DNA from: Seison nebaliae
Taxonomy: Eukaryota
DNA: 64,000 nucleotides
Reading direction: 5' to 3'
Assembly: GCA_023231475.1 (NCBI GenBank)
Contig: JALJEE010001503.1
Span: 1 to 64,000, forward strand
Each line of letters opens with the position of its first letter. The stretch's first letter is position 1. The position numbers were made by a program, and so were the translations under genes. Of this stretch, positions 5,570 through 64,000 are shown piece by piece. Below the pieces are notes generated by a model, which was not told where the DNA came from, ran no database searches, and saw only the letters and a list, made by a program, of their open reading frames with translations.

Positions 5570-8500
5570 CTATTTCAATGTTTTATATAATGCAAATGCC
5601 ATAATAACAGCGACGGATGCACCAAGTGCGACAGGTCCCATCAACTTATTATCTTCTTGTTCGTTCAAGTCGCCAACATCGCCCGCTAAACTTTCCAATG
5701 AAGCCGTACGTCCAATTGAGGAGAATTGTTTCCACACAGTTGATCTTAATGGGAAGATTGGAAAGGTTGCTAACGCGATTAATTTCAAATAAATATGACG
5801 TCCCACATCCACATCGGCCGTTGTTGCTGACGAGAATCGAAGTGGTGGAGGTAAATTGAAGCGAAGACAAAATCCTTCAGGTTCCAAACGATAATTATCA
5901 TAAAAGTTTTGATAATTTGATGATTGTAAAAAAGCGGATTTATCCGAATGTGTTCCGATTATGAGACATGGAGTTCTCTTACCACCAGCTCGATTCAAAT
6001 ATTTCATAAAATAATTAGCGATATGAGCGAATGACGTTGGATTGGACATGTCATATAATAAACAGACGATCGTTGCTTCCACTTCCTTCTTATTCTCTGA
6101 TAATTCAATTGATATCTCCAAATTATTTTCACAATATAATTTCTCTCGTAATATCAAATATTTCTTTGATCCATAAACTGATAATAATCGAACAGATTTA
6201 TTCGGTATTAGATCTCGATCCACTTTCTCAAGATCTTCATTTGATCGACCTAATAGTCCTTGGATGAATGCCGTCTTCCCACATCCACGATCACCAATCA
6301 CGTCACATAGAACGATGGGATAATCACATCGATTTCTATTAATTCTCATTCGATTCTTATAATTATTCGATAAATTATTTGGATCTTCTCGATTCTCTCG
6401 TAGAGCCGTTATCAGAATATCAGACGTTGTCCATTTTTCCATAATCTCATCAATCTTCTCAGCTGATGAATTTCGTGCCATTTCATTCCGACAAGAATCC
6501 TGTATATAATCCAATGATCGTTTCAAATAAAAATGACGATATCCCATCAATCCGAAATATTTCACGACTAATTCCGGTTGGAAATATGATGCAATTCTAA
6601 TAAAACATTTAAATAATTTAAATAATTTAAATAATAATAATGATTAACATCCATTGATTGAGGAAAGCGGAGAATGTTATAATATTTCCTTTATTTCCAT
6701 CCATCTCATGATAGGCGGGAGGATTGGTTGTTGATAATGTTTCCTTCGTTCGATGAAGAAGAATTCTTGGACTGAAATGATGACGATTATTTGAATTATT
6801 CAAAATTGATGGGGTCGATTTACAACTGTTATGTTCCGATCGTATACTCGACAATGGAGTAATTCGATTATTCTTCTTCGTTTTGGAGTATGGACGGAAA
6901 CTGGAATCTTCTAATTTCTTTTCCGATTTCGACAGATCTTTCTTCGATCGAATATCAGAAAACGGTAATAATGGCATCGATGGAATATTTAATGCGAAAG
7001 AACGATGAACCATTTGCTTCGTACGTCGTGAAACTTGAGCACCGAATAAAATGCTGTGAGGTTTCTTCGAATTATGGATTGATAATCTCGAAATTTCTTC
7101 ATTAACTCCATCATCATCTGGATCGTCATCGATATCGATATCATGAATTTCTCTTCCTCTCACCATTAATTTTCCGTCATTTAATCTCATAAATCGTCCA
7201 TGACGACGATGATTATTTTTGATGGAACATGAATGATGAATATCTCGCATCATCCATGGTGGTCCGTCATGACAGAATGTGGAGAACATGATAAATAAAT
7301 CGGCTTCATTCATAAAATTCTCTTCCATCGTAACATTTAATCGATATCGTTTAATATGAATGAGACGATTGAAAAAATATTTTGAACTTTTAAGAAATTC
7401 ATCAGATCTCTGTCCATTTGATGCAAAACGTTCAAATAAATATAAGAGGAAAGAATATCCGTCGATGGACAAAGTAAACTTTTTATCAGGAGAAATATTT
7501 GAGGTTGAAATGAAATTTTTTTCGATCAACAAATCGAAATTATAACCGAAATGTCTGAGAATGCTCCAAACGGTTTCTTGTCGACTCTTTTCGAGATAGA
7601 GACGTTGTAAAGAAAAGAATCCCGATTCGTCACAAATATTTTTCAATTTCATCAAATTATTTTGTCGTTTATCATATTGATCTTCATCGATATATGTAAT
7701 TCGAATTGATCGAATCGATTGTTTCAGATCGTTCAATTCCGTATTAGAAAGAAGAGATTTGAAACAAGCTAATTGAAGTAGTTGAAGTTCATTATCGTCT
7801 AAAAAATTGTCACCATCCAAATCACAAATTGAGAAGATTCGATGAAGAGCTTGTTCGCATTTCAATGAGAGTTCTCGAGAATTTAAATTATAAATTAAAT
7901 TGATTGGATATAAAGCGAAGTTTTGAGCTAATTGAAAAAGTTGGAGGACATTCCTCATCGTTACTGCTGACGTATGAATACATGCATGAATTTGAGAGTA
8001 AGTTCGAAATAATGATTTTAATCCATCATCATATTGTGGTAATTGAATGGATCGATTTTGAGTAGATGATGAAATAAGTGGAAGAACACAATCACTCTTA
8101 TTCCCAACAATTAATATCGTCGGCATTTTATGAAGATAATGTGCATAATGATTCTTTAATAACGTTTCAGAATCGGTCGATGTTACTGTTGTTGTTGTTG
8201 AGGGAAGACGGATTAATTCGATGAGAGGAAGCCAATAAGACTCGAGATTTTTTTTCGAATTATCATCAATTAACGAATAAACTAAACAAATGGAATTAGC
8301 ACGACGAATTTGATCATGTAGAATGTCTTCATCGTCAATCTCCGAATTATAATCCACAATTAATGTGGGACGATTCTCACTCGTCACTTCCGCTGGGACG
8401 GTAATCGTTTCTGCTTTTTTCGGCACATTCAATTGGATAGACGTAGTACTCAATCGATTTAATGATGTTGTCGATTGGAACTTTTGAAAAAAAAATAATT

Positions 8501-8700
8501 TAATTAAATTAATAAAATAATTATAACGATGTTCGTAGTATCATCTTCATTGATTAAGGCGAATATGAGTGACGTCTTTCCAACATTAGCTTAAAAACGA
8601 GAAAATAAATGAATTTGTTGAGAATGTGAAAAAATCACCAACAATCTCCAATGAGAAGTATTCTAATTTCATTATTCTCCTCTTCCCAATCGGATGTCAT
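5570..8700 (-). CDS. RHOT: Mitochondrial Rho GTPase (Miro), 4 exons
   Basis: Spliced N-terminus MTSDWEEENNEIRILLIGDSNVGKTSLI. EF-hand RIFSICDLDGDNFLDDNEL, second GTPase VIGDRGCGKTAFIQGLLG, and a C-terminal TM anchor. Introns at ~8643-8591, ~8528-8482 and ~6648-6597. Confidence 0.93.
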
Positions 8701-9927
8701 TTGAAAAACATGAGAATAATTTCATCAGATCATCAGAACAATTATTGGTGATGAAAATGAGATAATCAAAAGTAAATACAATCCGCGTACGCATTAAATA
8801 ATATTAAATCATTTGATGGAACAAAGATTATTTAAATTAAAAAAAAATTATCTTCCTAATTCAATTAGCTTCAGATTCGAATGAACAAAATCTTCCTTCA
8901 ACTGATAATTCACATTTTATTTATAATCAACAAAAAATCTCAAATCTGTCACTTTTTTTTTTGAGGAGGAAATAATAATTACGCCTCTTATCCTCTAATC
9001 GTATTTCTCTAATTTACCATGATTAATCACTTGAGACGAATTGTTGATATATAAATTATGTTCAAATTTCATTCATTTCAATCGAACATTTTACTAACAA
9101 TTCTGTTATTATTAGTTTTCTCATACACCCGTCAATTCCTTTATATATGATGACTATCGATATTTAAGTCTTCACAATATTTACTTACTAATTAAATGAT
9201 TGAATGAATTATAACATTCTGCCCTTCTCTTATTGAATTAATTAAATATTCAATCAATATTCTTTCTTTATTCCTTCATAATTAACATTCTTTCAATAAC
9301 TTTTCCATTAAACATAATTTTTTGGATAAGAATATTATTTTCCTGAATTTATGAAACTTTAACTCATCAAATAAATAAGGAAACATTCGAAAAATTAACC
9401 GCATAATCATGTTATGTGTTAAGATCTATAGAATATTTTCGTTTATAGAAATCAGAAAATCTGATCTCTAAAATCTCATCTGGTAAATAACGAGTTTTAA
9501 ATTAAAGAATTAGAAAGGGGAATATTTTATAACAAGAAGTAATTTATACAGTAAATTTTTGTAAAAAGACAAGCTTCGTTTTTAATTTTGTAAAAAAATA
9601 ATAAATAATTTCAATCATAAATAATAATTATTATTATCCAATGGGTGATAAATTGTTTGGTTTGATGATGGTAGAAAATAATTGAAGAAATATAAAGAAT
9701 AAAATTGCTTATTTGTTTTATTGAGCTTCACAGTTAGTTAGGAGCTGAATATTTGAAATAAACAAATCCATATTAACTTAATATTATAATCGTTTGAACT
9801 TTTGAAGTACTTTGTCGAAATTGGACATACAACGTTTTCTAACACAACGACGCACATTTTCATCAAACGTTTCCAGATTCCTTAACCATCTTTTTTTATC
9901 TTCCCACTAAAAGGTAATTGAATTAGA

Positions 9928-12545: not shown

Positions 12546-15067
12546 TCATTCGACATCTCGATTATTAAATTTCTTCGAACTTTTCATTTCTCCTCGTCGA
12601 TTGGGTCTTCGATTATTCTTATCATTAGATCCATTTATTAGATGAGAATAATAATTATTATTGTTATTATTATTATTATTATTGTTTATTGAATTCGGAT
12701 ATTGTTGAGGATGATTATATGAATGTGGTTGTTGTTGTTCTTGTTCTTGTTGATGATGATATGATGAGTTATTATTATCGAGACTATTATTACTATTAGA
12801 AAGCGATGTTGTTGCATTATGGTTGACAGTGGAGTAATTGCTTCCACTCATCGAACCACCATTCGACATATTTCCCGTGTTATTATATCGCCTTCGATTA
12901 TTATATCGACGATCATCTGAAACGGAAAATTAATTAATAATAAAATCACAATAATTAAATAATAATAATTTTGTCAAGAGTCAAAGAATTTTTTTAAAAA
13001 AATTTGAGAAAAATAAAATTCCTTTCGATTGACAATCGACGAAAGAAGTAGAAATTGAGAATAAGGTGAGAGATTAAGGAAAAATTAACAGAAAAACAAT
13101 CAACAAGGTCATCAAACATCAAAAGAAACAATTATATCTATTCATATTATCTATTTTCTGATATCTTTCTCCTGACACTCATATATCAATCTCACCTCAA
13201 TGTCGAGATATTATTATTTGGTCGGAAAGTGAATTTCCTATGTTGTCCTCTCGACATTCTTCCTCGACGATGATATCCGCCTCTTTTACGACGATTATTT
13301 CCATGTACAGAAGATGTATCTGATTGATATGCAGTTCCAACACCAGTATCAACTGACGAATAACTGGTATATCGATCAGTAGCTAAGCCGTCAACAAAAG
13401 CTTTTTTAGATAAATTAAATTTAAAAAAAAAAAATAATTTTTCATCATTCAGCACACACTAACCATAATTGGGATTCTTATTATTGTAACGTTGATTACC
13501 ACCTGATTGTCTAAAAAGATAAATATTAAATAAATAAATTAATTCGTAATAAATTTTCAAATTTTAACTGATCGTCACGATGAATACCATTTTCATTTTT
13601 CTTCCGTATTTGTTCATGCAATTCCGTTTGTTTTATTCTCATTTGGTCGATATCCTACAAAAAATGAAGTTAAATGAAAAATTGAAATTAATTTGGAAAA
13701 ACTTTCAAATGTTTGATGTGATGAAGGAGCATCGTTCTGGCAAGATCAACATTTTCTTTCGTTCCAATAAAAACAAATTGCACACAATTATCCGTATTGT
13801 CAATTGATGGATCGATTGTCTGCCAATCGATTTTCGCATATGTCATATATTTCTCATCCAATTCATTCGATTCATTCGTTCCATCTATCGATGATTGTGA
13901 TATATTATCTGCATTATGGAGATTCATATCATTTCCATCACTCCCATTATCATCATTATGGATCTTCTCTCCTTTACCATCTTTACTTCCATCAATTCGA
14001 ACTCGAATCACATTTGAACGATCGACAATTTCCTGCATAACTCGTCCGTTCTTTCCGATCACTTTCCCCACAATCGGTTGTGGCACTAAAATTGAACAAT
14101 GAATATATTCCATAATTGCACGTGCTTCTGCCACCGCCTCTTCTGTATCTCCATAAATTGTAATGACATTTTTCAACATTTTATTCTCCGAATCTGAATT
14201 AACTTCAATTCCACGAATTCCCAACAATGTCTTTGCTTTCGTAATATTCGTACCACGTGAACCAATCGCTAATCCCACAAGTGATGGAGCGATATGAATC
14301 TTTTCAATAAATGGACATGTTCCATATGTCAAAACAGATGCATCTTTTTTCTTCACTTTTTCTGAAAAAGACAAAAGTTGTTTTTCCATATGTAATTCTC
14401 GTCGTTTCATTTCCAATTTCTCATGACAATGACTAGTTAACATATCTAACAATGCTTCACTCTTCTTTCTTGTTCCCATATCTAACGAGAGTATGGAGAC
14501 TTGTCTAGTGGATGGATCGTAAGAAATATAAGCGGCATCTAATCCATCTTTAATATTTTCCATTTCTGTCTCGTCACCAAATGCGTCAGCATTTTCTTTC
14601 TTTACATTCATTTTATGAGAATAAATTTTAAGTTTCGTTAAATCTTCTTTTGGTAATTTCGCTCGTACACTTGACTCATCGAAAATATCCTGTTTCTCCG
14701 TTTTCGATAATTTAAAACTGGCCGCATAAACGTTATTGGTGATCTTTTTGCATTCAGCCGTGTGCCAACCACACAATTTATTCTTGTTCGATTCGTCATT
14801 ATAATAGACTTCAAATTGATCTCCCACATTAATAATTGCCGACGATTTAGTCGGTAGAGTTAATTCCGTTCGATTCAAATTCAATGGTTCCATCCAATTA
14901 TTTTCAAATTCAACTTTCAATTCATCTCCATTCACTTCTACCACATTAACCTGTCATGATTGGAAATAGGAACGACGAATGAAAAGAAACAAATCGCCAA
15001 CCGTATAATATACTTCCTCATGTAAATATTCGAATTTGAGATCATTTGATGAATTCATTTTATCCAT
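12546..15067 (-). CDS. FMR1: Fragile X RNA-binding protein (FMR1/FXR family): Agenet/Tudor, KH1-KH2, RG-rich and N/Q-rich tail
   Basis: [30 protein letters not shown] (KH1), [26 protein letters not shown] (KH2), [13 protein letters not shown] at 15067. Multi-exon; the 3' exon structure (stop at 13192 versus 12546) is uncertain. Confidence 0.92.
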
Positions 15068-16065
15068 TAAAATCCCAAAGAAATATTTCTGAAATGTTTC
15101 TAAGGAAAAAGATTCAAGAAAAAAAGATATGAATCTTCCGAAATTATCTGTCTAAATTAATTTGAATGAACGATCATTTTATGAGGGAAATCGTCGCGAA
15201 TTATTAGGAAAGGAAACAGAATATATTCCCTAAATATACTTCTACTTCTACTTCTTCTTCTTCTTCCTTCGTCCCATCAAAGATACAATTTGAAAGAAAA
15301 ATATTTTCAAAATAATTTATTACAAATTATTTTTCATTTATTTCCTTCAAATTTTTTAGAAAATATTTTTTGGAAATTTGGTGAAAGATGATACATATCT
15401 TGATCAGACGGAATGATAAGAGGAATTAGTTAGGAAGGAAGGAAGGAAGGTAAGAAATGAATGATCGATTACGGTAATATATCGAACGTTTGAAAATGGA
15501 ATATTTGTGATATAACACTAGGGAGAAGAAACAGTCGAACGGTTAAGGCAGAAAAAAGCTTACTTGTAAAGATTACAAGAGAAAACAATTACTTCAGTTT
15601 TTTCTCCATCTCTCATATATACAATATCTCTTTGTCTGTATATCTTCAACTAAACCTTCTGGAAAGATTTCCTATTGTGCTCTAAACATATTCCAAATAA
15701 TTCACTGATTCATGTAAAAAATTAAGGACGATTAAAATCGAAGCTCACTCTTCTCGCTAACTGCTTTCCAATTCATCAAGAAAAGCTTAGGTACTGCGAT
15801 TGCTTTCGTTCTTTGACATCCCATGGTGACCGTATAATTAATTATTTCCCATATGGAAAACAAACAAACAGTTCCATTTCACATGTGTTCCTTTTTTTTT
15901 TCAGATGACGAACCTTTTTGAAATTAATGAAAAAATTTAAAAAGTATTTTGAAATTTTTTGAAAAAAAAAATATTATTTCAAAAATTTCAAACTTTTAGC
16001 TTATACCCTCACACATGTTTCCTCTTTAAATTATTCACGTTTTTTTTTCAAATTCCCATACAGAT

Positions 16066-22816: not shown

Positions 22817-24084
22817 ATGGCGAAATTGGAAGCGATGGAAATAATGCCATCATCGAATTTTGATACAAAATTGAAAATGTCTCAAAAAAAATTTAATCCA
22901 TTCACAACTCGAAAACTGGAGCCGGTATTTGGTTATTGATGATTGTCATTGAAAATTTTAAAATTAAAATATTAAATTTTTCCAGCTTCTGATACCGATG
23001 ATAAAAAGAGATCTCAATCGATGAAGAATGCAAAGAGTTTGCACAAGAATTTAATGTCGTTATGGAGGAAGCAAGATGCGAGAGTTGGTGATGATATCGA
23101 CAAGATTCTCATTCAAATAAAAGTTTCAAATTAATTTATTCACAATTTAAATTTAAAACAAATAATAATAATTACAGAAAGAATGTATCAATTTGAATTT
23201 CATGCCAGATGAAGCAACTGATATTATGGCACCAGAATTATTATTAATGAGTTACATATTTGTGTATAATTAATTAAATCTAATTATTTGCATTTTTAGG
23301 AGATGTATTAGAAATTAGTACGATGAGAGCGATTGATCGTAAAGATGTGGAACAATTTGAAAAACAATATGATCAATTGACATCATATTATAATGATTAT
23401 GGATCATTACTTCAACAATCCGCTACTTATACTCAAATGAAAGGATTATATCTTTTATTTCTATTAGCGAAGAATCGTTTAGCTGAATTTCATGCCGTTT
23501 AGTCATTTTTTAAAATTGATTTGAACCAAATTAATAATTTGATGATAATTTGATGATAAATGGAAAATAGGCAATTGAGTCCATCGATCCAAATCTTCTT
23601 CAAGATGATGTTTATATTCAACATCCAATTCAATTGGAACAACATTTGACGGAAGGCAGTTATCACAAAATCTTTTTAGCCAAAGCCAATTTACCATCAG
23701 AACGGTATGGATTATTCATCGATCTCTTACTTGATACGATACGGAATGAGATCGGTCGTGGAATTCAGGAATCTTATAAGAAAATGAAAGTATCGGAAGC
23801 GAGACGTATGTTATTTTTCGGGGAGAAAGATGATAAATCATTTCGAAAATATATCGAGAAAGTTTTTTCTTTTTTAAATTTTTTTTTCGAATTTTCATTT
23901 TATTTTTTTTGAAATATAGAATCGATGGAAATTTAATGAGAAGAAAGATTATTTAGTTTTTGATGTAGTGGAGAAGGATAAAGATGTTAATCCGAATGAT
24001 ATCGCTACACCATTATCCATTCCAGTGAAGGATGTCGGTCTTCGTTTATTGGACTATGCTAAACAATTAGAAAGAATTATTTAA
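22817..24084 (+). CDS. PSMD8: 26S proteasome regulatory subunit Rpn12, 6 exons
   Basis: Spliced product contains RDVLEI, GLYLLFLLAKNRLAEFH, YIQHPIQLEQHLTEGSYHKIFLAK, LLDTIRNEI and ends LDYAKQLERII. Five GTT...AG introns. Confidence 0.93.
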
Positions 24085-24290: not shown

Positions 24291-25629
24291 ATGAATCGAT
24301 TACATTCCGTTCAGAAATGGTATTTAAAAAAATTGATGGGAGAGTTGTTGTCGAATGATGTGAAATTGAGAAGATCGGCATTGAGTCGTTCGATAACATT
24401 AATAGAAAGTGGAAATGTTAATGGAACGATTAGAAGACAATATGGACAATTGAAACCGAATTTAGTTTAAATTTATTTTCATCAAATTATTTTTTTGATG
24501 ATATTTGAAAGGAAATGAATTGTGAGAAATTGAGATCATCAGCTACTTGTCTTCAATTGTTTATGGATGAGATTTGTTCGAAAACATCTAAACAAAAACG
24601 AACGATTCGTTTGGGATTTACCGGTGCACCTGGTGCTGGTAAATCGACATTTATCGATTCATTCGGATCATATCTCTCCGACGAGTATTCATTGAAAGTT
24701 GCCGTTCTCACAATTGATCCATCATCAGATGTTGGTGGTGGTTCAATTTTAGGTGACAAAACAAGAATGAGTTCATTATCAATAAAAAATGATTCTTTTA
24801 TTCGTTCGTCACCATCGAAAAATTCGTTAGGTGGAATCGCTCCTGTAACATACGAAACGATTCTCTTATGTGAAGCTGCTCGATATGATATCGTATTAAT
24901 TGAATCAGTAGGTTTAATTAAAATATTTGATAAATGTCAATTTGGTTTTTAGGTGTGGGACAATCAGAATCAGAAATTCGAGATGTTTCCGATTTCCTTC
25001 TTCTATTAGTTCCACCTGGAAGTGGCGATAATGTACAAGGTAAATATTTATGATATTAATTAATTTAAAAATTAAAAAATTTATTAAATATTTGAAGGAA
25101 TTAAGAAAGGAATAATGGAACATATTGATGGAATTTGTGTGACTAAGAGTGATGGTGATTTGATACCGTCAGCGAGGAGAACATATTCAGAATATCAGTC
25201 AGCAATTCGTCTTTATTCAAATGAAGAGAAAAATATAAAAGTTTATAAAATTAATATTTAAAATATTTTTTATTTATTATTAAAATTAAAATTATCATGA
25301 TTATAATTCCAGATATTTATGACGAGTGCGAAAAAGGATGAAGGGATGGAAAATTTATGGAATTATTTAAATAAATTTTCTATCGATCAATTAACGTCCA
25401 TACGTCAGGAACAGAAAACGAAATGGTTCGATTGATAATTTCGAAAGTTCGAAAAGTAAAATTTTCTTTAATCAGGTTCCGTCGTCATTTCCTGCAACGA
25501 ATTGTGAATGAGTCGAAAGAATTCCTTTCGACGAATCATTCAAAATATCATCAAGTAGTTGGTAGTCCATATTATGTGGTGGAAGAAGAATTGAATCGTT
25601 TTATGAAATTTTTAAAAGAAAAAAAATAA
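24291..25629 (+). CDS. MMAA: Methylmalonic aciduria type A GTPase (MeaB/ArgK family), 6 exons
   Basis: [75 protein letters not shown]. Confidence 0.93.
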
Positions 25630-25631
25630 AA

Positions 25632-26019
25632 TTATTTTTGTCTTCGATCTCGATTGATTATGGTGATATGTTGACCAGACAATTCTCTTCGAATTTCTGA
25701 GGGGAAAGTTCCACTGACAGAAATGGCATAAACTCCCGGAACAAACGAGTCAATTTGTTGCCATTTACCCACCCAACTATTACGAGGATCCATCAGACTG
25801 ATCATTCCATCATATTTACTTGACGTACAAGTTATTGAACGATCTTCACTTCCTCCGATTTGGAGAAAAGGACAATTGGGACAACCACTTTCAGTAAATT
25901 GGGTTGGAGTCTTTCCAAATAATAATTAGAAAATTTTGTAAAAATTTCGATGTAACTTTTATTAACGAACATCCAAGACATGCTCGACCTTGTTTCAAAT
26001 CCGATACAACATGTTCCAT
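25632..26019 (-). CDS. SUPT4H1: Transcription elongation factor SPT4, 2 exons (absent from the ORF track)
   Basis: Manual translation: MEHVVSDLKQGRACLGCSLIK|TPTQFTESGCPNCPFL...CTSSKYDGMISLMDPRNSWVGKWQQIDSFVPGVYAISVSGTFP. One intron, GTTACA...GGAAAG. Confidence 0.95.
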
Positions 26020-36300: not shown

Positions 36301-36804
36301 GTTCTTTGTATTTCTCGATTCTCTTCAATCCAAGCATTCAATGATACTGATTCATCTTTCCATTCATTCGCCTATTAATTCCATCAAATTATTGTCATAA
36401 TATCAAATTTAAAATTATGTTTAAAAAAATTTTAAATTATCAAATAGAAATAAATTAAAAAAATTTAACTTTACTTTTATCGACATCTAATTTGATTTGA
36501 TTACGTCGTAGATCGTCTTGGAGATTATATAAATTCTCTCCCAAATCTGTTCGTTCCTTCATCAATTTTTGGAGTCCTGTCGTCAATTCTTTCACTTCCA
36601 AACTGATTTTCTTGTCTCTGTTTATTAGACATTCGTTGAAAGCCTTAAATGATTGATGAAACTTTGAAAATAAAATAATGATTCAAATAAAACTTTCTGA
36701 TAACGTTGCATAATTGGATGACCTGGATCCAGAACGACCATTTCGTTCTGGAGTTCTGGTTCGACAAGAATGTCGATACGACCAGTTTGACCAACATCCG
36801 CCAT
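33380..36804 (-). CDS. CCDC40: Coiled-coil domain-containing protein 40 (motile-cilia axonemal ruler), ~13 exons
   Basis: MVVLDPGHPIMQRYQK, QNWNSCLIGVRHRDEA, GPLELEI..L, QQWLRQQNELV, KQILLWEKKIQLAKEMKASVD, MKAEIHRMQIRY. Twelve short introns, all with GTT donors. Confidence 0.92.
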
Positions 36805-39068: not shown

Positions 39069-39150
39069 ATGAAATGTTTGACAGAAAATCAATTTAACTT
39101 TTTTTTTCATTTCATTAGAATGTCCATTATGAGTGAACGAGAATGAAATA

Positions 39151-41503: not shown

Positions 41504-42806
41504 ATGAACAAAGATTTCTTGTCAACATTTCCTTGGTTCCCAAATACCATCGGACAATTAGACATATGTTCGAAGAACGTGTTGATGTATGGAAGTGATT
41601 TGGATGCTGATCATCCAGGATTTAAAGATGAAGAATATCGGAAACGTAGACAGATGTTTGCGGATATTGCTCTTCAACATCGTCACGGTGATAATATTCC
41701 CAAAATCGATTATACTTCTTCTGAAGTTTTTTCTTTTAAATGAAATCGTTTTAGAATATACTTTTGACTTTTGAAAATTAGATAGAAACTTGGTCGAAAG
41801 TATTTGAAAAATTGTCATCATTATATCCCGATTTGGCTTGTCAACAATATTTGGAGCATTGGTCTGATCTCGAGCAGATCGGCTACACCAAAACGACAAT
41901 TCCACAATTGACGGACGTGAGTAATTATCTGCAAGAGAAAACTGGTTTCACATTGAAACCGGTCGCTGGATATTTAACACCGAGAGATTTTTTGACAAGT
42001 CTCGCTTTCCGCGTTTTCCATTGTACTCAATATATTCGACATGGAGCTAATCCGTCATATACCCCCGAACCGTTAATAATTAATGGAAAATTTGAATATT
42101 AAATCGTTCTATTTTTTAGAGATTGTTGTCATGAATTATTGGGACATGTTCCGTTATTGGCTGATATGGAATTTGCTAATTTCTCCCAAGAAATCGGTCT
42201 ATGTTCTTTAGGTTTTTAAATATAATAAATTATTTAAATTAATCTAATTATTTAAGGAGCATCAGAAGAGAATGTTCGAATTCTAGCGAATATTTATTTC
42301 TTTTCTATTGAATTTGGTATTTGTATCGAGAATGGAAAACGGAAAGCTTATGGGGCTGGCTTGTTAAGTTCGGCTGCTGGTTTACTTTTCTTTCTTATTC
42401 TTTATCTACTAAATATTATTCCTCTAATTAAGAATTACAATTCGCTATTTGTGATACGACGGCGAAGATTGATGATTTCAATATCAAGAGTATCGGCGAA
42501 GCAACCTGTCAAGTTACCCAATATCAAGACAGGTATTTCGTGTCGAATTCATTTGAAGAAGCAAGACGAAAATTGAGGTTATTCGCCGAAAGTATAAAAC
42601 CGCCATTTCTGGTGAAGTATGAACCTCTGACACGTTCAATCGACCTTTATTATGAAATGAATGATATGAAGAAATTATATGATGAAGTAGAAGAAAGAAT
42701 GATTTTTTTGAAGAAATTACGAAGAATTGTTAAAGAGAAAGAAAGTCATGCGGTGTTGATCGATAGGAGAAAGATGGAACTAATGAAATTATTATTAGAA
42801 TTATAA
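41504..42806 (+). CDS. TPH: Aromatic amino acid hydroxylase, tryptophan hydroxylase-type, 5 exons
   Basis: [26 protein letters not shown] (TPH-type Tyr), [23 protein letters not shown] (Fe ligands), YFFSIEFG (TPH-type Phe), [10 protein letters not shown]. Confidence 0.9.
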
Positions 42807-43118: not shown

Positions 43119-44891
43119 ATGTCATTATTCCCAATAAATTTAAAAATGTTTCTCCTATTTCTCACTTTATTGATCTTTCAATGTCAAACGATTTCTGGTC
43201 AAGTCATTTTCGATTGTTTCGGTTTAGCTGGCAACTGTTTTTACGAACCTTTGTCATGTGCAAAAAATCGGTCCCACTGTGAAATTTTTCTACAATGGAC
43301 ACGATTACCGAATAGTGAACTCATCCACATCACATTGGAATATCAGGGACATCGATTAAGGAATAAATATAAAATCGGCTACGTCGCTTTTGGTGTATCG
43401 ACTGACGATCGTATGGGCGATGATACTGTCGTAGCTTGTACGGAAAGTTGAAATTGAATTATGAGAAAAATTAAATTTCTTTCAAAATTTCAAATTTTAA
43501 AAATTTCTAGATTATGGTGTAATTCCATATGCGAATCGTGATGGTCATCATTCGACGGAAATGTTGACGGATAATGAAATGAAACTGTTGAACAAGAGGA
43601 TCAATATCGAACCGAATGCAATTAGATGTTCGTTCGATCATCCAATTACAACTTATGACGGCAAGTCGTTGATTGATGGGAAAAAACAGATTTTCATCGT
43701 TAACGGTAAAATGAATAGCCGTTATCTCTATTTTTTGATTTCGAATGATTTAATTTCCATAATTATCAGCTAATCAAATCGGTTATCATGAACATAATGT
43801 TCGGGTGATAAAAGATGTGAATTTTGAGCAACCGGTACGAAGTAGAATGAACTTATATCAACCATCATCTTATATCGCTCATGGTGAATTTTTTTTTTAA
43901 ATTTTAATTAAATAATTAATACAAATTATATTTTTTTGAATTCTTTTTCAGCCGCACTAGAATTATTAGCATTTGTATTCTGTTTTCCAGTAGCGATATT
44001 AATCGGACAATTCCTTAATGGATATATGACAAAGAAATTTAAATTCTGGCAAGTTATTTTCTCTTTGAGTAAACAGTTATCATACTCATTATCGTTGGCG
44101 GTAGCTCCATGTAGCAATAGCATTAATCGGCGTATTACTTGCAGTAATCGGTGTGATTATCGTTGTAGTTGAAAAGAGTGGTTATTATGTCGACAAATAT
44201 CGATCGAAAAGTATCGCTTATATACATGGAGTTGTCGGTGTGAGCGTCCTAGTCGTTTTGGGAGTAGGAGTTAGTTTTCGTAATTATCATCTGGAAATCA
44301 TCACAATTCCTTTCACCTTCACTTTCTTCAGGTAATTATTGGATTTGTTACGGCTTTTATGAAAAAGTTCCATTTCTGTTTTAGAATATTACATTTCATC
44401 TTGACAGTAAGTGCAGCGATGGGTGGAAGTTTAGTAGACATTAAATTACTCATAAAAATCTTATGTAAAAATCATTGTTTTTCAGTTGCCACTTTATTCC
44501 TCGGTTTGGAATTGATTCGGATAGTTAAACCGAAATATGTGTTCTGGATCTTAATCTCCTTCATCATATTCTTCATGTTAATTCACCTGCTGTTATGGTG
44601 CGAACAATTTTGTCGTTATGGTCGAATGATACGACACACGGAATTAAAGAATGACGAGAGTTAGTTCGCATAGAATCAGTAAGTAATAGTCACCATCTGT
44701 CCAATTGACATGTTGCAGAGTTAAGTTATTCGTCGAAAACATTTGGCATATACGGAATGCGATTACTAAATGGTTCTGAAGTACCACACATTCCCAAATG
44801 GATTCCTTGGCTCATTGCTGTATTTTCCGCTATAGTACTCGGATTGGCAGTAGCATGTATCATTGCATTGGGAATGCGATTACGTGAATAA
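43119..44891 (+). CDS. DOMON + cytochrome b561 protein (ferric-chelate reductase FRRS1-like), ~8 exons
   Basis: Signal peptide followed by DOMON motif GYVAFGVSTDDRMGDDTVVAC. Four heme His are recovered after splicing: IAH, FWQ|LH, YIHGVVG, RILH. Several TM segments. Confidence 0.8.
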
Positions 44892-48347: not shown

Positions 48348-50458
48348 ATGGGTTAATTCTTCTTTATCCACCATATTTGACAACTAACAAATTTTATATT
48401 GATCTCTTATAGTTATTGATAATCATTTCTTTATTGATTTATATGAGAAAGTTAAATAGAATATCAGTTAGTTTTTCATCTCTCAAATTATTATCAATAT
48501 TAATTTATCATTCCATTCATTCAAAAGTTGATAGGAAACATTATTTTCATTTTCGTCTGTAAATGTTTCGTTCTTTATCTACTCATCATTCAAAGTAATT
48601 ACAATGTGGAATTCCTGAGGAAATACTCGTATATTGCCGCTTCCGATCAGGGAGTTGCTAACGGCATCGTTTGGTATCGGAAGAATATATTCCGAATCAA
48701 TCAGAATGTGCAATGTCAAACTAAATTAAATTCAAGACCGAAAAGATTAATTTCTTTAGAAAATTTTGAAAATGGAATATCAACAACTTTATTTCCTCAA
48801 ACTACCACAACGACTTCTATTGTCATCATTGATGATAATATTCCTAATCTAACAACAACTTCGATGATCATTTCTACTACTACTTTAACTACTACTACTA
48901 CTACTACTACTATTAGTTCGAGCACTACATCTACTACAACCACTTTCATTAGCACCTCATCTTCGACATTCCCTTCGACAACTGCCAGTAGCGTCGTTGA
49001 TCTACTGCACATGTTGACAAAGGAACAAAAAGAATTTATGACGGACGTAGATATTTCAAATGAAAGAATTAATATAAATGCGGCGAATGTAACTTACGAA
49101 AAGGAGAAGGAAATAACGGAAACGATTAAAAGTGAGTCGATCGTTATAGCAACCGAGTTGGTCGATGAGGAAAAAGTGGATGTAACGGAATCTCTTCAAT
49201 TCGATGGTTGGAGGAACGAATCGGTTGATACGAGTAAACAATCGATGAAAACAGCCACAAGTGAGAGTGGAATTAAATTATCAGACGATACAAGTGCCAT
49301 TCCTGATTATAAGACAAATACCACAACTATGATAAATAGCATTAACAATAACAATTCTTCTTTTGATAACTGTCAAAATTGTTCGACGATTGAAATGATA
49401 GACAATTCCACTTCTTTCGCTTCCATCATTCAAGATAAAACGATTGATGTAACATCATTCTCATCGATAAATGATAATACGACGATGGAGGATGCGAATA
49501 CATTCTCATTATCAATGGACCATATTATTAGGGAGCGAGTTGATATGATAAACAACTTGTCCACATCCTCATATTCCACAATAGACAATCATTCGATTCA
49601 TTATAATATAGATTCTCTCAAGAAAAAGAGAAGGAACTTAACCGAAATTATGTCGGTAACAAATCGAACTGTCTACAAATTATTGTCTCATGGTGGCAAA
49701 TGTTATTGCTCATCACAATTTGTAATTTATCATTATATTCACATTTTCCATTACGTTCTCTTACTTATTCTTCTCATTATCCTTCTTTACGTGCTTTATC
49801 GATATCGGAAATATGAAAGAAAATCAGTAGGAACATTCGGAGAGAATGGATCATGTGATCGACAATCATGTTTTCAACTCTTCTTCAATTGTATTCCCAA
49901 CAATGTACATCTCCAAAAGACGAGTAAGATCGACAGTGAATTAATAAGTGTAGAAACGAAGAATTTGATGAATTCGTTCCATAAAGAATTGGATTTTAAG
50001 AAACCGAAACAATTCTATGGGGGAAATGATTCGAGAACGCCAATCGAATTAAAAGGTTCCGATACATTCGGTACATTACCATCAGACAACGATTATATAC
50101 AACGAAACGGAACTAGACAAATAGCGTTAAGATTTTTATGAATTTTCAAATTTTATGCTTTTTAATTTTTTTTAAATTTTTATGAAATTTTTTTAGCATT
50201 CTCACAACTGAAGAAGTTCAACAGGAGTCGACGGAGCATATGTATGAAGAGAGTCATAATTATGCTGCACCGTTAGCGAAAGAAGAAGATACAGATTATT
50301 CATCACCAACCAGTTGTACTGATGTAACATCACCGTTATTGAAGAATTTGGAAGAACAAAATCGGAAAATTACAAAAATCAAACAAGAATCACCAAGAAG
50401 AGAATTACAAACGTTCGGACGTCCAATTAATAATGATACATATCAATTTTATCGATAA
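48348..50458 (+). CDS. Thr/Ser-rich mucin-like membrane protein with Tyr-motif cytoplasmic tail, 4 exons
   Basis: Model: ATGG (48348-51) | 48413-48450 | 48528-~50125 | ~50197-50458. N-terminal hydrophobic segment, poly-Thr region, TM YVLLLILLIILLYVLY-RYRK, and a tail with MYEE, NYAAP and DYSSP. Confidence 0.65.
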
Positions 50459-50462
50459 AATT

Positions 50463-51986
50463 TTATTTCGATGATTTTAAAAAATTTTGAAACGATTCTT
50501 TATCCATTGAACTCTCTTGAGAATTATTAATCGTTTGTTCTTCATCATCACCGACGGATAATTGAGCATCGAACGGATTATTGATGGATATATTTTCCGT
50601 TCGTTCAACGATATTATTGATATCTAGAATCATGTCAGAGATGAAGGAGTGTTGAAGGAAAGGAACCTTTTAAACGATCTCGATCAAAATTCATAATATT
50701 CTTTCTGATATTCTCTTTCTTATCAGCTTCACTTTCCATCTTCAACTTCTCATACTCTTTCCGATATCCTCTAAATTATATTTCGTTCGATCAATTAGTT
50801 TAAATAAAAAATGTTAACTCATTAAATTCATTTTTCGCTTCCGTCAACATATCGATCAATTTATCGAAACCATATCCAGTTGCCGAACTAACTGTCACAT
50901 GCTAAAATTATAAAGACACAAAAAAAATCAGAATTATTAAATAAATATTATTTTTTAAGTTTGTTAGAAACTTTTAATTGTGAATAAAATTCGTCCAAAG
51001 CTAACGAAAGTGAACGAGCGAGACAAGTCGAATAACTGGAATGAGAAGACAATGCGTCATTGAACGCACTAAAATCTTCCATCCAAGTTAACAATTCGCT
51101 TGGTTTCTTCTTATCACACTAAAATAAATAAATGAATTTGAAACATGAAAAATTCAAATTAGTATAATTATATATAATTATATATATTATATATAATAAT
51201 TATAAATAATATAACCTTATTCATTACCAGAATGAACGGTAATCGATATTTGAAGAGGATGGAACAAGCGTACAACATATTCGACATGAACGACATGGGA
51301 TTTGATGATCGCTCAATATCGATTATATAAACGATGACAGTGGGACAAGTGGCAGCTAAACTTTCTGTTACAATCAATCCAGATGCTGACCAATTGAACA
51401 CTTCGATTTGACCCGGTGTATCGATAATAATATGTCTATTCGACAATAAATAAGAAGAGATTTAATAAGAGAATAAAAACTTCTTTTTACAATTGGTGAT
51501 TAGTTGAAGAACTTGATCGAATTTCGTGCAAAATAAATTGAGACTTGTCACAATTGCTCCATTCGGTCCCAATCCATAACTCTTCATAATTTCTTTATAT
51601 TTAATCGTATCACGAATGTCTTTAAAAGAAATTTAAAAAATTTGAAAAAACAAAAAATTTCTGAGAACCGATATTGGAGACATAAGGTAAATTGTGTACG
51701 GCTGGATCTAAATTAATGATATATGGATGTTGGAATTCTTCTTCTTTTAACGTCTTTCGATAATAAGTTGACAATTGAACTTTCAACATCTGCAACAAAA
51801 CCGTTTCCACAAATCTTTAACGGAATGATGATGAACTTGTGTAAATTTACTTTTCCCACTTCCCGCCATTCCCAAAACAATTATATTCATCGACATATCC
51901 ATCGCTGATGATGATGATGATGATGATGATGATGGTGCTTTTTCATTCTCTTCATTTGTTGTTTTTGTTGTCGTTGTAGTTTCCAT
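50463..51986 (-). CDS. GPN1: GPN-loop GTPase 1 (XAB1), 8 exons
   Basis: [79 protein letters not shown]. Confidence 0.95.
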
Positions 51987-53206: not shown

Positions 53207-54560
53207 TTAGATATAGATATTGGGAGCGGAACATTCTTCGGTGGCAGTTAAGAAAAGTAAAAGAGGAATTTTTAAGAAATCTTCAATTGTTATGGAAGTT
53301 GAATTGGGGAATGATTGGAAAAGGTAAGGTATTTCGACATAAATCGATTTGAGTAATTCGAACATTTTCGGAATATGTGAACAATATTTGTCGAATTCGT
53401 CACAAAATTGACGAATTTTCACTTTCTGTTCATTATAAATGATCATGAGTAGACTATATTGTTCGTTGTGGAAATTCTCTCGTAAATATTGTTCATTGAT
53501 CTCAATCGAAATTAATTCTTTAATAAATTCATTGATTTGTTCATGAATCACTGGAAGTTGAGTATATAAATCGAGAAATTGTTTAATCTTCTCCGATTGT
53601 CCGATGTGTTTGATTTGATTGATCGATTCATTTCTCATAAAATGATTAAGTCTCATTGATAAATGGAGGAAATGTTGAGTGTAATTCTGCATGAATTTAT
53701 CAAATAATTCTAATAAATGATTTTGTTTTATACGAAAATTGTCGGGATGTGATTTCTTCGATTTTTTCATCGAATTCTCTTCACATGAACTTGAAGTTGA
53801 TGATGAATTGAATGAGGTCGATAAAACGGAAGATAAAGTTTTTTTCGTCGTTGAAGTGGATTTGAGGGATTGATAGTCGAGTACATCACCAGACATATAA
53901 CCGTTATCGTCAATTCCTGATAAAATATCAGATGATGGTTCGACTTCTTCATAAATCCGTTTTGATGGATTTCTCTTCTGGAAAGAATGACATCGTTTAC
54001 TCTTATTTTTGATTATTGGTAAATCATTATAAGTTCGATTAAATGACATGGTATTCGAACACATTTGAATTTCATTTAATGTCGATTGAATATATTGTTC
54101 ATTAGCTGAATATTTTTGACGATAAATTTTCAATTTCAACGAATATTTTTTAGTCGATTTCTTTTTCGAAAAATATTGACTGAATGAAGTTTTATGGATC
54201 GATTTCAACATTTGTTTCTTCATCAATTTGTAGATTGCTGATGATGATGCACGAATGACACATTTATCGAATATTTCAACGATTATATCACCATGTTCCA
54301 ACGGTGAACAATTGAGAGCTGTTTGTTTCACATATGTCGGACAATCGCCAGTCAATTCGAAACCAAATTGTTTTTTTGTGATTGGGAAATGTTTATAATC
54401 GATCGTAATCTTAAAATGTATTATTAATTTATAATAATTTAATTAGAATTCAAATTGTAGAAGAAAAAACGCTAACCTCCATCAATTGTTTCTCATCGTT
54501 TATAGATGGAATAACTGAAGATGGGAAGAAGTTGAATGTATTGAAAGAATTGGAATTCAT
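53207..54560 (-). CDS. PDZ-domain protein with C-terminal helical region weakly resembling a DH domain, 2 coding exons
   Basis: Spliced: KQFGFELTGDCPTYVKQTALNCSPLEHGDIIVEIFDKCVIRASSSAIYKLM fits the PDZ GF..GD pattern. IEDFLKIPL is near the C-terminus. Intron GTTAGC...TTTAAG. Confidence 0.6.
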
Positions 54561-58039: not shown

Positions 58040-59387
58040 TTATATAATCAAGTCATGTAATCGACGTAGCCGATATGTCTTTTCAATATAATTCCTCAAT
58101 TTGCCCGTCATTTGTAGACGACTAACTATACGACGATAAGTTGACAAGTTGCGAACATAATAAAATAATTGTTTGACATTCGACGAAATTGATCGTTCTT
58201 GTTTATTCGTCATGTTATAAGAGAGTGGGAATGGATCAGTTTGTTCCTTCCTCTCATACAGTCGACCACGCGAATCACTGGGAAAGAAAATGGAGACGGA
58301 TATTCCCGCAATAACCATTTCGTTTGAGAACTTCTTTGTCATTTCGTTGCATAAACGGATCTCTTCAGCTTCTTTGAACGCTAATAATTTGTCAGCGAGA
58401 TCATTCGTTCTCGTTTTCGAAAATTTCTCCTTCTTCTTCTTTTTCTCATATTCGGAAATGTCAAGCGTGCTCATCGTTGTTGACACGAAAGTGGGTGTAG
58501 AATGATCTAATTGGAAAATGACGGAAACCAAACGAATTTCCGTTGACGATGAATATAGTCGTGTATCGAATCCGTTCACGATCTTGTTTCGATGATAGGA
58601 CTTCCGTATACAAGGTTGAATATATTGTTCTCCATTCTCTGTTGAATTGCTAGTTGGTTTGAGTGAAAAGACATTATTCTTCAACATTCCTTTCATTCGA
58701 CATAAACTAAATTTTGTATTGTCCGCATTCGAATAGAGTTTAAATAGACAAAGTTCTGAATCGTAAGTGTTCTGAAATTTGAAAAATGTTGGAGAATTTT
58801 TTTTAGAAAGAGCCCAAACTTTTGAGATTATTTTTCCATTATCTTTCATACACAAATATTGTCCGTTCGCTAACGACCTTAACAAATATGTTAAATTGGA
58901 ACAATCGCGTTGTAGAATGAATGAGGCTAAAGAGAAATAGGAAATGGTGAGGAATAATGGAATGGAAACCGTCTTCACTTTGAAATGGATCCGTATCAAC
59001 GATACCATTTGATTTAATGATAAGGAAACTGTTGTCATATAACTGAATACTTAACAGTTTGGTGACGGAGGAATATTGGAGATATTTCCAATATTCATAT
59101 TTGTTCCATTGATACGGATTAGATTCGCCAGCTAAAAATAATGAAGAGAATTTATCCTTATTTTCTGTCATCAAATCATCTTCATTCATCTGCCTCTCCA
59201 ATAGTTGTTTCTGTTTGACTCTTTTCTCATATCGCTTCAATCGATGAATTGCTTCGAATAAAGAGGATTGGGGAAAACCATCGAATTGAAACTGGTGAAT
59301 ATCTGCATCGATATCAAGCGCATTTAGATGTGGTAGTAGAGAAGACAGAATTATAAATAAGATTTGTAATTGAACATTAATAAACAT
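58040..59387 (-). CDS. Fibroblast growth factor family ligand with long C-terminal extension, 3 exons
   Basis: Signal peptide followed by the beta-trefoil core IQLYDNSFLIIKSNGIVD...|SFILQ...LLRSLANGQYLCMKDNGKIISK|NTYDSELCLFK. The two introns split the core as in typical FGF genes. Confidence 0.8.
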
Positions 59388-60302: not shown

Positions 60303-62329
60303 TTAACGATCGTACAATTGTGTGGTACCTTCTGCCATACTTGGTTCTTCTGGTTTCACAGAACGACCTAACGCTCCAAATTCACCGACTGGTGATGTAT
60401 CTAAAATTAAAAAAAAACGAATTTAAAAAATTTTCCTAAATTTTCCATGTCTATTTTTATTCTTATTCGATTATAACATCAACTGAAAACCCTAGTAAAT
60501 AGTGAGATTAACTTTGTGAAGTGATGGACCTCCGTCTCGCCCAAGGTTGTACTGCACCACTGCCGAATATAACATAGACGATGCAACCGGAAACGTAGAC
60601 AGCCGCTGTCATATAAAAGACGATTCTCCATTGATATTGTGTTCCCTAAAAGATATAAATAAACTACTTTCATTAATTAATAAATGAAAGAACGTCAGTT
60701 GTTATCATTTTACAAAGTAGTGGCGAAAAGATTCCGGCGAATGAGCCTAAACTGTTTCCTATTCCCATAAGTAAACCTGCATATTCAGGTGCTATATCAT
60801 TAAAATTGGGTACGAACCCTCCTCCATAAATACATCCTCTAATATTAAGATTTATTAGGGAAATACGATAAAAGAAGACGCTAACGCAAATGAAACTCCT
60901 AAAGAGAGGAATAATACGGCGAGTGGTCGTTGACGACAATCTAAGTAAGCGAGAACTATTAAACTAACTGCAGGTACAATGTTGCCTAAAATATTATTTC
61001 AAAGTTACAATTAAAATTCTATCTTAACATTAATAAACCTAATACAGTAAAGAATTTTCTTACCGAAGTTGTTGTCATTAGTTTCTTTTTTTGAATAATA
61101 TCCGATACTAAACCGGTCAAGATACAGATTGCCCAAAAAAGTATGTAAGGAATACTGGATAATAATCCATTCTAATATTTGAATTATTAAAAATATTAAT
61201 TATAAAAAAATATTTATATTTCTCATGTAATTTTTTAAACTTTTTTAATATCATATTTCAGTACGTCTTTCATAAACGATGGAACACTGGTGAGCATGAG
61301 GAATACTCCAAATAAGGAGGTGAATGCCGAAAAATTAGCTGCCCAAATTGGCTTAGATGTAAAAATCAACTTCCAAGGAACTTGCTAAAAACTATAATTC
61401 CTTTAAGAGAATGTTGATAATAACCGAAAATACCATCCGACTCACCGGAGGTATGTGGGAATTCATATAATTGAGTTCCTCCTGCTTCATGAAACGATTA
61501 GTTTGTGGTGTGTCCGATACGAACCACATCCACATTACAAACCAAATACACGTAATAAGACCTAAAATGTTCATTGGAGGTTAATGAGAATGAAAAAGAA
61601 CCAGTGAAAAAGAATATATGAGGCCAGCCACCGTAGAATCCCCAATCGCAAAACGCTCCACCAGTAGTCAATGTGACAACATTGCCGATTTGAGAACCAG
61701 CATTTGAAATAGATGTTAAAATTCCAAGCTCCAGTGGAGGTGCCCATCGGGCCATCAGAGAAGAGGTTGCTGGAAATACGGCTCCTTGACAGATACCGAT
61801 GATAATTCTCGTCATAAACAAAGCACTCCAATGCAATTTAGCTGCCCATGGTGAAATAATGGTAAGTAAACCGGCCACGAGCATCGAATAACCCCAAACT
61901 CGTTTTCCACCTAATCGATCGCTTAAAATTCCCCCAGCAACTTGGGATAAAGTGTAGCCCCAAAAGAAGGATGACAATAAAAGTCCTTGAACGCTACTCG
62001 ACCAAACAAATTCCCCATCTTTCATCTAAACACATCCGATGGTGGAGGATATGATTAGATTATGATATATTTATCAGTTTTTTAGAGAAGGAATTCTTTT
62101 AAACTTCAGTTGGTTCCTGTGTGTCATTGTTACCGCTACAATACTGCATTTCTTCAGCTGCGGCCGCATATTTAGTAGAAGCATTTCCCTTATCTTTCGA
62201 AACTGCCGTGTGATTTAACATGCAAACAATTCCAACACTTAAATTGATTCTGGTCGAATAAACAGCAAGATATCCAAGTGAGGCAACCAAAGCAAAATAT
62301 AAACGAACTGATCCTAAAAGTTTACTCAT
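60303..62329 (-). CDS. SLC17 family (sialin / vesicular anion transporter-like) MFS transporter, ~9 exons
   Basis: RINLSVGIVCM, FVWSSSVQGLLLSSFFWGY, ARWAPPLE, GGWPHIFF, VPWKLIFTSKPIWA, DIAPEYAGLLMGIGNS, GSGAVQPWA. Confidence 0.92.
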
Positions 62330-62534
62330 GATTTATTCGTGTTTGCACGCGCAAAAAATAAAAAGTCTTTAATAAAAATTTCCGAATAATTTTATAAAGA
62401 AATTCAATATAAACATTTCTTCACAATCAAAATATTCATTGAATTCAGAAGATGTTTCTCATAAATTATGAAAATTATGAAAATTTACTTAAACATCTTT
62501 CACTCTTTCTCGCTCTCTCTTCTCCCATTTTCTT

Positions 62535-64000
62535 TCACTTCTCTTTCACCAGCGATTGCATTGTCTCGTAAAGTGAATTGTCTAATACTTCGATATATGG
62601 AAGAATGTTCTCCATTTGACTGATTGCCGTGACGATAGCGATCATACGTTTTCCTGTTTCTGACGCTCGATCAATTCCGTCATGATTGAAACATTGGAGA
62701 ATGACTTTGAAGACGGTTGGCAAATTACCAAGATTCTCTCCAACAATTTGTTCATTTCTGCTCTCGGTCAAATCGCAAAGATAACCGAAAATATGTTCAC
62801 TTTCCTCTCGATCTTCCCATGTCGGTAACCAGCTGAACCATGTTGGGAGAATTTGCTAATATGAAGAGTAATAATAAAAATTTTCAAAAATTTCAAATTT
62901 TCAAAAAAATAGTAAAAGAAATAATGAAAGAAATAGAAATGAATGATTGAATTGTAACTTTTAACGTATCGTCTTGTGGGAGATTTCTGATGATTTTCGT
63001 TGCTGCTGAAATACAATTTTCTGTCGCTGAATTATTATCATTTACTCTGGAATTTGGTTTATTAATTTCCTGAACTAAGACATCGATGGCCATTTTGCAG
63101 ATCTGTTGAGTGTGGTCCCAATATTTGCTGGCTAGAATGCCAATTCCATAACTTGCTGCTTGTCGTACGCCTGGTTCCGTATCTTTAATTTGTGCAATTA
63201 ATAAAGGAATCACATTATTTCCATACGCTTCCAATGCTTCAGTTCCCCCGAATTCGAACACATCATCCCAAGCACAAATTCCCCATTGTCTGTCTGTTGA
63301 ACTGGATTCATTCAAAATTAATTGTTTAAATTCTTTTTGAACGAATTTATCAAAATGTGGTAGAATGTTGGCACCATACATTTTCATGATGATATGGAAA
63401 CAATCGGACATATTTGAAAGAACAGGTTGTTCTTCCGTTTCTGGAAATTCGATTTCATCACTATCATCATCGATATCATCTTTTTTCTTCTTCAATTTTT
63501 CTTCTTGATCTTTTTCTCTTTCTTGAAGTTTCGTCGACATCACTTTAAATATTTCACTAATTTGATCCTCATCAATGAATTCATATCCTACTAATTCTAA
63601 ACATTCGCCTAATTTGGTGAACATGTCACCGATATACTCTCGTTCCGGTTCATAATTTAATGCACTAATCAATTCCGTATGGACATTATTCCAAAGAGTT
63701 TTGAAAAATGTTTGACCTTTCGCCTTTCCACATTTTAATAAATATGGCATCGCTTCAACGGCATTCGCTCGAACATTATCATGAAAATAAAACCGTAATA
63801 ATGGTATCATCAATTCAGCTACATCAGAGATATATGGTGCAAATGCATCGCCCAAATCCTTCATATAACAAATCAACATACTACAAGCATTATTCTTTTC
63901 TTCTAAACCGGTGGTTCTAATGGCGAAAGTCTGTTGATTTTTTATTGTTATTATCTGTAATTCATCTTCATCAACTTCATCAATATCGTCACTAGACAAT
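62535..64000 (-). CDS. IPO5: Importin-5 (karyopherin beta-3), 3' part only; the gene runs off the window
   Basis: AIRTTGLEEKNNACSMLICY, LLRFYFHDNVR, DRQWGICAWDDVFEF, VRQAASYGIG, ATENCISA, WFSWLPTWEDREE. Intron at ~62957-62858. Confidence 0.95.

Follow-up and report, generated by a model that had tools for sequence, protein, structure and literature searches.

Animal introns typically start GTA or GTG, and to our knowledge a purine at the third intron position (+3) and a G at +5 are treated as near-universal in animal donors (5' splice sites). Here, we analyzed the introns of a 64,000-nucleotide (nt) stretch of the genome of Seison nebaliae, a tiny animal related to rotifers and living on crustaceans (GenBank assembly GCA_023231475.1, contig JALJEE010001503.1, positions 1 to 64,000 of the forward strand; G+C content, ~30%). 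In this stretch, referred to as the window, nearly all introns begin GTT. The pattern is real and confirmed by RNA: in this animal, the donor code of major-type introns is a variant one, for which a protist precedent exists.

Entamoeba, an intron-poor protist, also has major-type GT-AG introns with a nearly fixed +3U, and there a U1 small nuclear RNA (snRNA) with ACAAAC accompanies GUUUGU donors (Roy and Bowser, bioRxiv 10.1101/2022.06.08.495308). It differs from Seison, an intron-rich animal in which only +3 is fixed, in its strict +4U, +5G, +6U, and +7U. Canonical metazoan donors, grouped as AG//GU and //GURAG (the double slash marks the exon-intron boundary; PMC11732430), share with those of Seison the GT...AG ends, an A-rich exon side like that of the U5 loop 1 class, and core spliceosomal proteins as scored by BUSCO. 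In contrast, Seison donors have a +3 purine in 3 of 64 cases, belong to the GURAG class in 1 of 64, and prefer A over G at -1.

A further comparison is offered by the loss of METTL16 or SNRNP27K in Saccharomycotina (PMC10581693) and by mett-10 mutants (PMC11347140). Loss of the METTL16 ortholog in Caenorhabditis elegans shifts donor choice from GURAG to AG//GU sites, such as AA//GUUGU and UG//GUUG (PMC11347140), and the typical signature of METTL16 loss is described as +4U (PMC11732430). Seison resembles these cases in that METTL16 is scored missing and GURAG is disfavored, but its shift lies at +3 instead of +4 and SNRNP27 is kept. Cyanidioschyzon merolae, whose U6 snRNA reads ACUGAGA, sets a precedent in that its U6 box underwent compensatory change, although there the change concerns +4A in canonical GUAAGU donors (PMC10158995).

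In the literature, covered mainly through open-access papers, we found no report of a GTT donor code in Seison or another animal. By term search, introns come up twice and splice sites once in the accessible text of the Seison genome paper, never with regard to donor sequence, and the accessible main text of PMC12256650 contains neither "splic" nor "intron."

GTT donors predominate and are confirmed by RNA

The final set contains 64 distinct donors: 61 GTT, two GTG, one GTA, and no GTC. This bears out the original prediction, made from the sequence alone, of roughly 65 introns with all but about three beginning GTT. Over an expected T frequency after GT of 0.40 to 0.59, the excess is far from chance (binomial p of 2e-14 at T = 0.52 and 3e-11 at T = 0.59). 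Forty donors (39 GTT and 1 GTG) come from RNA-seq-derived transcript alignments, among the rows listed, a scope that applies to all RNA counts below. Eleven more are placed only via exact mapping of annotated Seison proteins (4 in PSMD8 and 7 in the DOMON-region gene), and 13 by a blind gene finder alone (5 in MMAA, 4 in a hydroxylase gene, 2 in a DUF1647-like gene, and 2 in others); the first three hydroxylase junctions are positioned gap-free by PDB homologs. The GTT pattern in this window is thus confirmed by RNA. The introns and their support are as follows.

5570..8700, minus strand: Miro GTPase; introns 8642-8590, 8527-8481, and 6648-6597, all GTT (RNA and blind finder)
12546..15153, minus strand: FMR1-like KH gene; GTT donors 15001, 13702, 13568, and 13463 (RNA)
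13195, minus strand: exception donor of the FMR1-like gene, GAG//GTGAGA, 279-nt intron (RNA)
22817..24084, plus strand: PSMD8; five introns, donors 22932, 23123, 23251, 23497, and 23862, all GTT (unique mapping of protein P0122; human PSMD8 alignment; last intron by RNA)
24291..25629, plus strand: MMAA/MeaB; GTT donors 24465, 24912, 25241, and 25426 (blind finder; Pfam and PDB)
25040, plus strand: exception donor of MMAA, AAG//GTAAAT (blind finder)
25632..26019, minus strand: SPT4; intron 25956-25911, GTT (RNA)
33380..36804, minus strand: coiled-coil gene, presumably CCDC40 (a name from the original prediction only); 12 introns, all GTT (blind finder; 12/12 in one RNA transcript)
39129..41160, plus strand: DUF1647-like gene; GTT donors 40129 and 40306 (blind finder only; Pfam)
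41504..42806, plus strand: modeled part of a tryptophan-hydroxylase-like (TPH) gene; donors 41726, 42072, 42212, and 42380, all GTT (blind finder; homolog alignment)
43146..44890, plus strand: membrane gene, presumably a DOMON gene (likewise named in the original prediction only); seven introns, six GTT, with exception donor 43884, ATG//GTGAAT (unique mapping of protein P0123)
50126..50196, plus strand: intron in a long low-complexity gene, GTT (blind finder only)
50463..51986, minus strand: GPN1; seven introns, donors 51836, 51668, 51480, 51215, 50971, 50818, and 50666, all GTT (unique mapping of protein P0002; RNA; non-Seison profile)
54410..54476, minus strand: intron in an unnamed gene, GTT (blind finder only)
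58040..59387, minus strand: unnamed gene; GTT donors 58969 and 58819 (blind finder and RNA)
60303..62329, minus strand: SLC17/sialin-like transporter; eight introns, all GTT (unique mapping of protein P0121; sialin alignment; RNA)
62856..62958, minus strand: intron in the window's final gene, presumably importin-like, GTT (blind finder and RNA)

The per-gene counts given in the original prediction hold as well: 12/12 in the presumed CCDC40, 7/7 in GPN1, and 3/3 in Miro, all by RNA, 5/5 in PSMD8 (one by RNA and five by annotation), and 4/4 in TPH. Its two exceptions, MMAA GTAAAT (25040) and DOMON GTGAAT (43884), were found as described, and RNA adds a third, FMR1-like GTGAGA (13195).

The RNA evidence consists of GMAP alignments of RNA-seq-derived transcripts to contig k141_2597, whose coordinates are those of the window (Additional file 2 of PMC8351084). 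At least 47 transcript rows belong to this contig, and the 17 transcripts with intron-sized gaps within the window were used. They yield 41 junctions, all of them GT...AG with no other GT...AG obtained by sliding, and 37 of the 41 are identical to junctions in the 57-intron set used below for sequence statistics. With 39 GTT among 40 distinct donors, the RNA-seq check proposed in the original prediction turns out in its favor for this window. No listed row covers MMAA, the hydroxylase gene, or the DOMON-region gene.

Partly unspliced transcripts are common in the same rows (window 5435-62371). Introns are retained in some isoforms, namely, GPN1 intron 1, Miro intron 2, SLC17 intron 1, SPT4, one intron of the presumed CCDC40, and FMR1-like introns; weak donors, or pre-mRNA present in the library, may account for this.

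Two further approaches agree with the RNA. The blind gene finder, which requires only GT...AG and a reading frame, returned GTT at 32/34 donors in a first run. In a second run, with GC donors permitted and the first 8 intron bases left unscored (hence blind to +3), it returned GTT at 49/52, GTA at 2, and GTG at 1. A self-trained version of the finder showed no T bias on nine other eukaryote, non-Seison loci (+3 was T in 5, A in 6, G in 4, and C in 3 of 18 introns), a small and noisy control in which three loci were without introns. Unique mapping of four annotated or clustered Seison proteins to the window gave GTT at 7/7 introns of GPN1, 8/8 of SLC17, 5/5 of PSMD8, and 6/7 of the DOMON-region gene. 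Exons of GPN1 (100% identical), PSMD8, and SLC17 match Seison proteins SNEBB_006998, SNEBB_006988, and SNEBB_007002, respectively, and the PSMD8 and sialin alignments are gap-free over most junctions. Along human TPH1, the first four exons of the hydroxylase gene cover residues 98-170, 171-267, 269-298, and 300-338, with split codons between them. Homolog searches with the SLC17 and PSMD8 exons returned the Seison protein as the sole match, and comparison of four sequencing runs with the window yielded DNA-type contigs only, with no splice joints.

In GPN1, the GTT donor is top-scoring among frame-keeping alternatives at 7/7 introns against a profile of 100 non-Seison proteins. For intron 1, the original prediction held that a canonical-looking GTAAAT just upstream is passed over because only GTTCAT restores the frame. 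The donor choice stands, with GTTCAT used in three transcripts and GTAAAT predicted to cost the Walker A serine, but the frame argument goes too far: GTAAAT joined to an AG 10 nt further on is also in frame and scores 458.5 versus 459.1 bits for the annotated form. Being within 0.6 bits, this alternative is not excluded by frame alone. In SLC17, an in-frame, canonical-looking CCG//GTGAGT lies 21 nt upstream of the donor and is unused in 2/2 covering transcripts.

Several candidate donors were dropped during curation: finder donors 48346 (GTA) and 48471 (GTT), within an unsupported N-terminal extension; finder donor 13097 (GTT), from a wrong gene model; a GTC call at 43271, where protein P0123 reads through the site; and an apparent GTG donor in Miro, which lay in the wrong frame, RNA showing GTT at 8642. 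Finder donor 58819 (GTT) was first removed and then restored on RNA evidence.

The donor signal is R//GTT, with +3 as its single strong position

Beyond GT, +3 alone is strongly informative, and the donor signal is R//GTT. Over intron background, +3 carries 0.85 bits and positions +4 to +12 carry 0.02 to 0.11 bits each (57 introns). The full set (n = 64) shows A 33, G 20, C 7, T 4 at -1; A 29, T 25, C 6, G 4 at +4; A 24, T 20, G 13, C 7 at +5; and T 31, A 20, C 8, G 5 at +6. The strict +4T, +5G, and +6T of Entamoeba are thus absent (25, 13, and 31 of 64, respectively), as is the canonical GTRAG code. The original prediction that +5G is not conserved holds at 13/64, but +5G is above background among GTT donors (10/61 versus 4.8 expected, p 0.019), with GTTAG in five of them. 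On the exon side, AAR (18/57 versus 7% background) and AR (28/57 versus 17%) are enriched.

The introns are short (median, 53 nt; 58/64 within 40 to 80 nt) and have a G+C content of ~19%. At acceptor position -3, T 37, C 14, A 13, and G 0 were counted (n = 64), so that AAG is frequent and GAG absent. None of ten branch-like motifs tried in 57 introns is clearly commoner near the 3' end, and no branch-point consensus emerged. The motif RTATCCTT marks U12-type (minor) donors and occurs in none of the 64, and two genes considered for the minor class, ZMAT5 and ZCRB1, are Missing by BUSCO. GT...AG ends and core major-spliceosome proteins that are Complete by BUSCO, with two exceptions (SNRNP40 and SPF45, both Missing), place these introns in the major (U2-type) class.

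All three exceptions have G at -1 and A at +4 (G//GTRA), a combination found in 6/61 GTT donors (Fisher p 0.002, for a pattern spotted post hoc). A test for 5'/3' compensation was not significant (p 0.30). The 279-nt FMR1-like intron, the longest in the set, has the canonical-type donor GAG//GTGAGA and adjoins an exon (13196-13400) skipped in one transcript (window 12917-13463, minus strand); GTR donors may therefore mark long or alternative introns.

Base composition was weighed as the source of +3T. Introns would then be defined by length and AT content, with +3T a by-product of T richness and TpA avoidance. Positions +4 to +12 and the branch region are indeed almost information-free, and T follows GT in 40% of cases across the window, 34% in exons, and 50% (16/32) in intron interiors. 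However, with an intron T content of ~48 to 52%, the expectation summed intron by intron from each intron's own T content is ~29/61 GTT, far below the 61/64 seen, and unused GT sites close to donors (n = 78) are followed by T 26, A 21, G 16, and C 15. Composition as the sole cause is thereby refuted, and we regard this explanation as highly improbable. Intron definition resting mainly on length and AT content, as suggested in the original prediction, can account for the lost information at +4 to +6 but not for +3, which is nearly always T and never C. Paramecium and similar AT-rich, short-intron genomes reportedly keep +3A as the last donor base.

It is just as improbable that U1 reads these donors as canonical sites through a bulge or a +1 shift in register (GTT-NN-GT), given that +6G occurs in 5/64 donors and that pairing scores with a bulged +3 or a +1 shift are at shuffle level (p 0.27 each).

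At least one GTT donor probably stands at an old intron position

The GTT donor at 42072 falls after the second base of the codon aligned with PAH P281, which is the position of human PAH intron 7 (c.842+1, as given in a literature search listing). At least one probably old donor has thus converted to GTT. Many Seison introns may nevertheless be new. A bdelloid GPN1 gene (L120:3014-4129) is intronless, whereas Seison GPN1 has seven introns, pointing either to gain in Seison or to bdelloid loss. Among 80 GPN1 loci from a metagenome scan, one of them bdelloid, the single readable bdelloid intron begins ag//GTAAGC, one data point; an earlier metagenome scan gave no match.

Such gain raises the possibility that a burst of introners with GTT...AG ends set the pattern and that the spliceosome is merely tolerant. 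The GPN1 contrast speaks for this, as does the match of only one of four hydroxylase introns to a human PAH position. Against it, intron sequences are dissimilar (mean longest common substring, 7.58 versus 7.35 to 7.53 in three shuffles), junction repeats measure 0 to 1 nt in 46/57 introns with no target-site repeats, and the probably ancestral intron at the PAH c.842 position also begins GTT. An introner origin is consequently judged improbable, if less so than the compositional and register explanations.

Spliceosome gene content

Gene content was taken from a BUSCO table covering 25 rotifer and acanthocephalan genomes (PMC12256650, supplement); the calls below are those of this table. METTL16 is Missing in Seison alone; in each of the remaining 24 genomes it is scored as present or as fragmented. 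SPF45 is also Missing in Seison only, SNRNP40 in Seison and one bdelloid, ZMAT5 in Seison and both acanthocephalans, and ZCRB1 in those and monogononts. Complete in Seison are PRPF8, PRPF6, PRPF31, PRPF3, SF3A3, SF3B3, SLU7, SNRNP27, TXNL4A, ZMAT2, and MFAP1; this includes SNRNP27, an orthologue singled out for survey in the original prediction. A term search of the table turned up no entry for U1C or LUC7.

The window holds no tRNA, snRNA, or other Rfam family. A U5 search of five genomes found none. A U1 pattern scan of genome contigs gave 31 loci; 16 of these and one viral locus were put to Rfam, and 10 of the 17 are U1, with no U1 among the viral loci checked. These loci are non-Seison and canonical by pattern design and were not used as evidence. 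Animal-type U1 genes, some in tandem repeats, lie in contigs of bacterial genome bins (L005, L006, L009, L012, L013-L015, L022, L023, L028, L029, and L031), where they most likely represent host contamination.

A changed snRNA base as the proposed mechanism

The original prediction of a re-tuned spliceosome receives indirect support from the near fixation of +3T, including at the position shared with human PAH, and from METTL16 being scored missing in Seison only. Since canonical U1 would offer a U-pseudouridine mismatch at +3, a near-fixed +3U seems to need a new partner. We slightly favor the reading that the snRNA base facing +3 is now an adenosine, most likely at U1 nucleotide 6 and possibly also at U6 G44. 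Taken separately, a change in U1 is plausible though short of even chances, and one in U6 is clearly the weaker candidate. The simplest change would turn the U1 5' end from ACUUAC into ACUAAC, much as in Entamoeba, and the faint canonical remains with only +3 flipped (the +5G excess and GTTAG in five donors) would fit a U1 reading GUUAGU. The U1 duplex would be short, spanning about -1 to +3; AAR on the exon side would pair with U5 loop 1; and these pairings would fix the site together with a cross-intron definition based on length and AT richness. Probable loss of METTL16 would leave U6 A43 without N6-methyladenosine, with the GURAG class gone and +4 and +5 decaying, while the rare GTR donors would survive by added pairing at -1G and +4A.

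Several observations weigh against this proposal. Atypical-donor lineages mostly keep a canonical U1, as described for yeasts, Giardia, Trichomonas, Thecamonas, and Micromonas (bioRxiv 2022.06.08.495308). A U1 with C9 does not favor A (33) over G (20) at -1. The +4U preference expected from METTL16 loss is absent, +4 being near background. Seison lacks ~40% of the BUSCO set, and 76/526 genes present in N. agilis (14%) are Missing in it, so that, at this ~14% base rate, the METTL16 call is a lead only. Moreover, the base change is deduced from donor sequences, and the sample is one 64-kb window of a single genome.

Alternatively, the snRNAs could be canonical, with +3U selected by G44-U wobble pairing within an unmethylated U6 helix, by altered U1C, LUC7, Prp8, Dim1, or SNRNP27, or by both, and with U1 pairing largely dispensable in short introns. 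U6 G44 lies opposite +3, where its binding to A or G is only weak (PMC11732430), GUUUGU is reported to pair better with canonical U6 (Entamoeba preprint, bioRxiv 2022.06.08.495308), and the retention of canonical U1 elsewhere, the missing METTL16, and the three exceptions, all good matches to canonical U1, point the same way. Wobble alone, however, would be unlikely to yield 95% U without C; the U6 helix would also favor +4U and +5G, both near background; and Prp8, Dim1/TXNL4A, SNRNP27, ZMAT2, and MFAP1 are Complete, by BUSCO call only. We consider this explanation possible but doubtful.

A bolder form of the base-change proposal, which would tie in the loss of METTL16, is unlikely. Here, an animal would have re-coded the very core of its major spliceosome: with G44 of the U6 ACAGAGA box replaced by A, a Watson-Crick pair with +3U would take over from the usual pairing at +5G and leave a three-letter GUU donor genome-wide. 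The change would destroy the METTL16 target, which would explain why that gene was lost. For a co-changed U6 box, C. merolae is the precedent (PMC10158995).

Other features of the window

Miro (6630-8480, minus strand) encodes ~990 amino acids (aa) with a long insertion beyond the EF-hand region. The SPT4 transcript (minus strand) overlaps the MMAA model (plus strand) at the latter's 3' end by ~370 nt (window 25257-25629). An intronless 527-aa open reading frame at window 3715-5298 (plus strand) matches PAZ weakly and Piwi not at all; it possibly encodes a diverged Argonaute-like protein. Low-depth contigs in sequencing runs X1 and X2 are ~87 to 90% identical in coding parts to window 22500-42400, which suggests a second lineage or related species. 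A full-depth hydroxylase paralog in X1/X2 breaks at the same intron, near 42044-42113.

Implications

That ~95% of the donors of an intron-rich animal are GUU shows that a joint switch of thousands of donors is possible. Seison thereby offers a natural test of U1, U6, and METTL16 as drivers of donor evolution, for which fungi and protists have hitherto been the subjects of study. A practical consequence is that the Seison genome should be mis-scored by splice models whose training data come from other animals.

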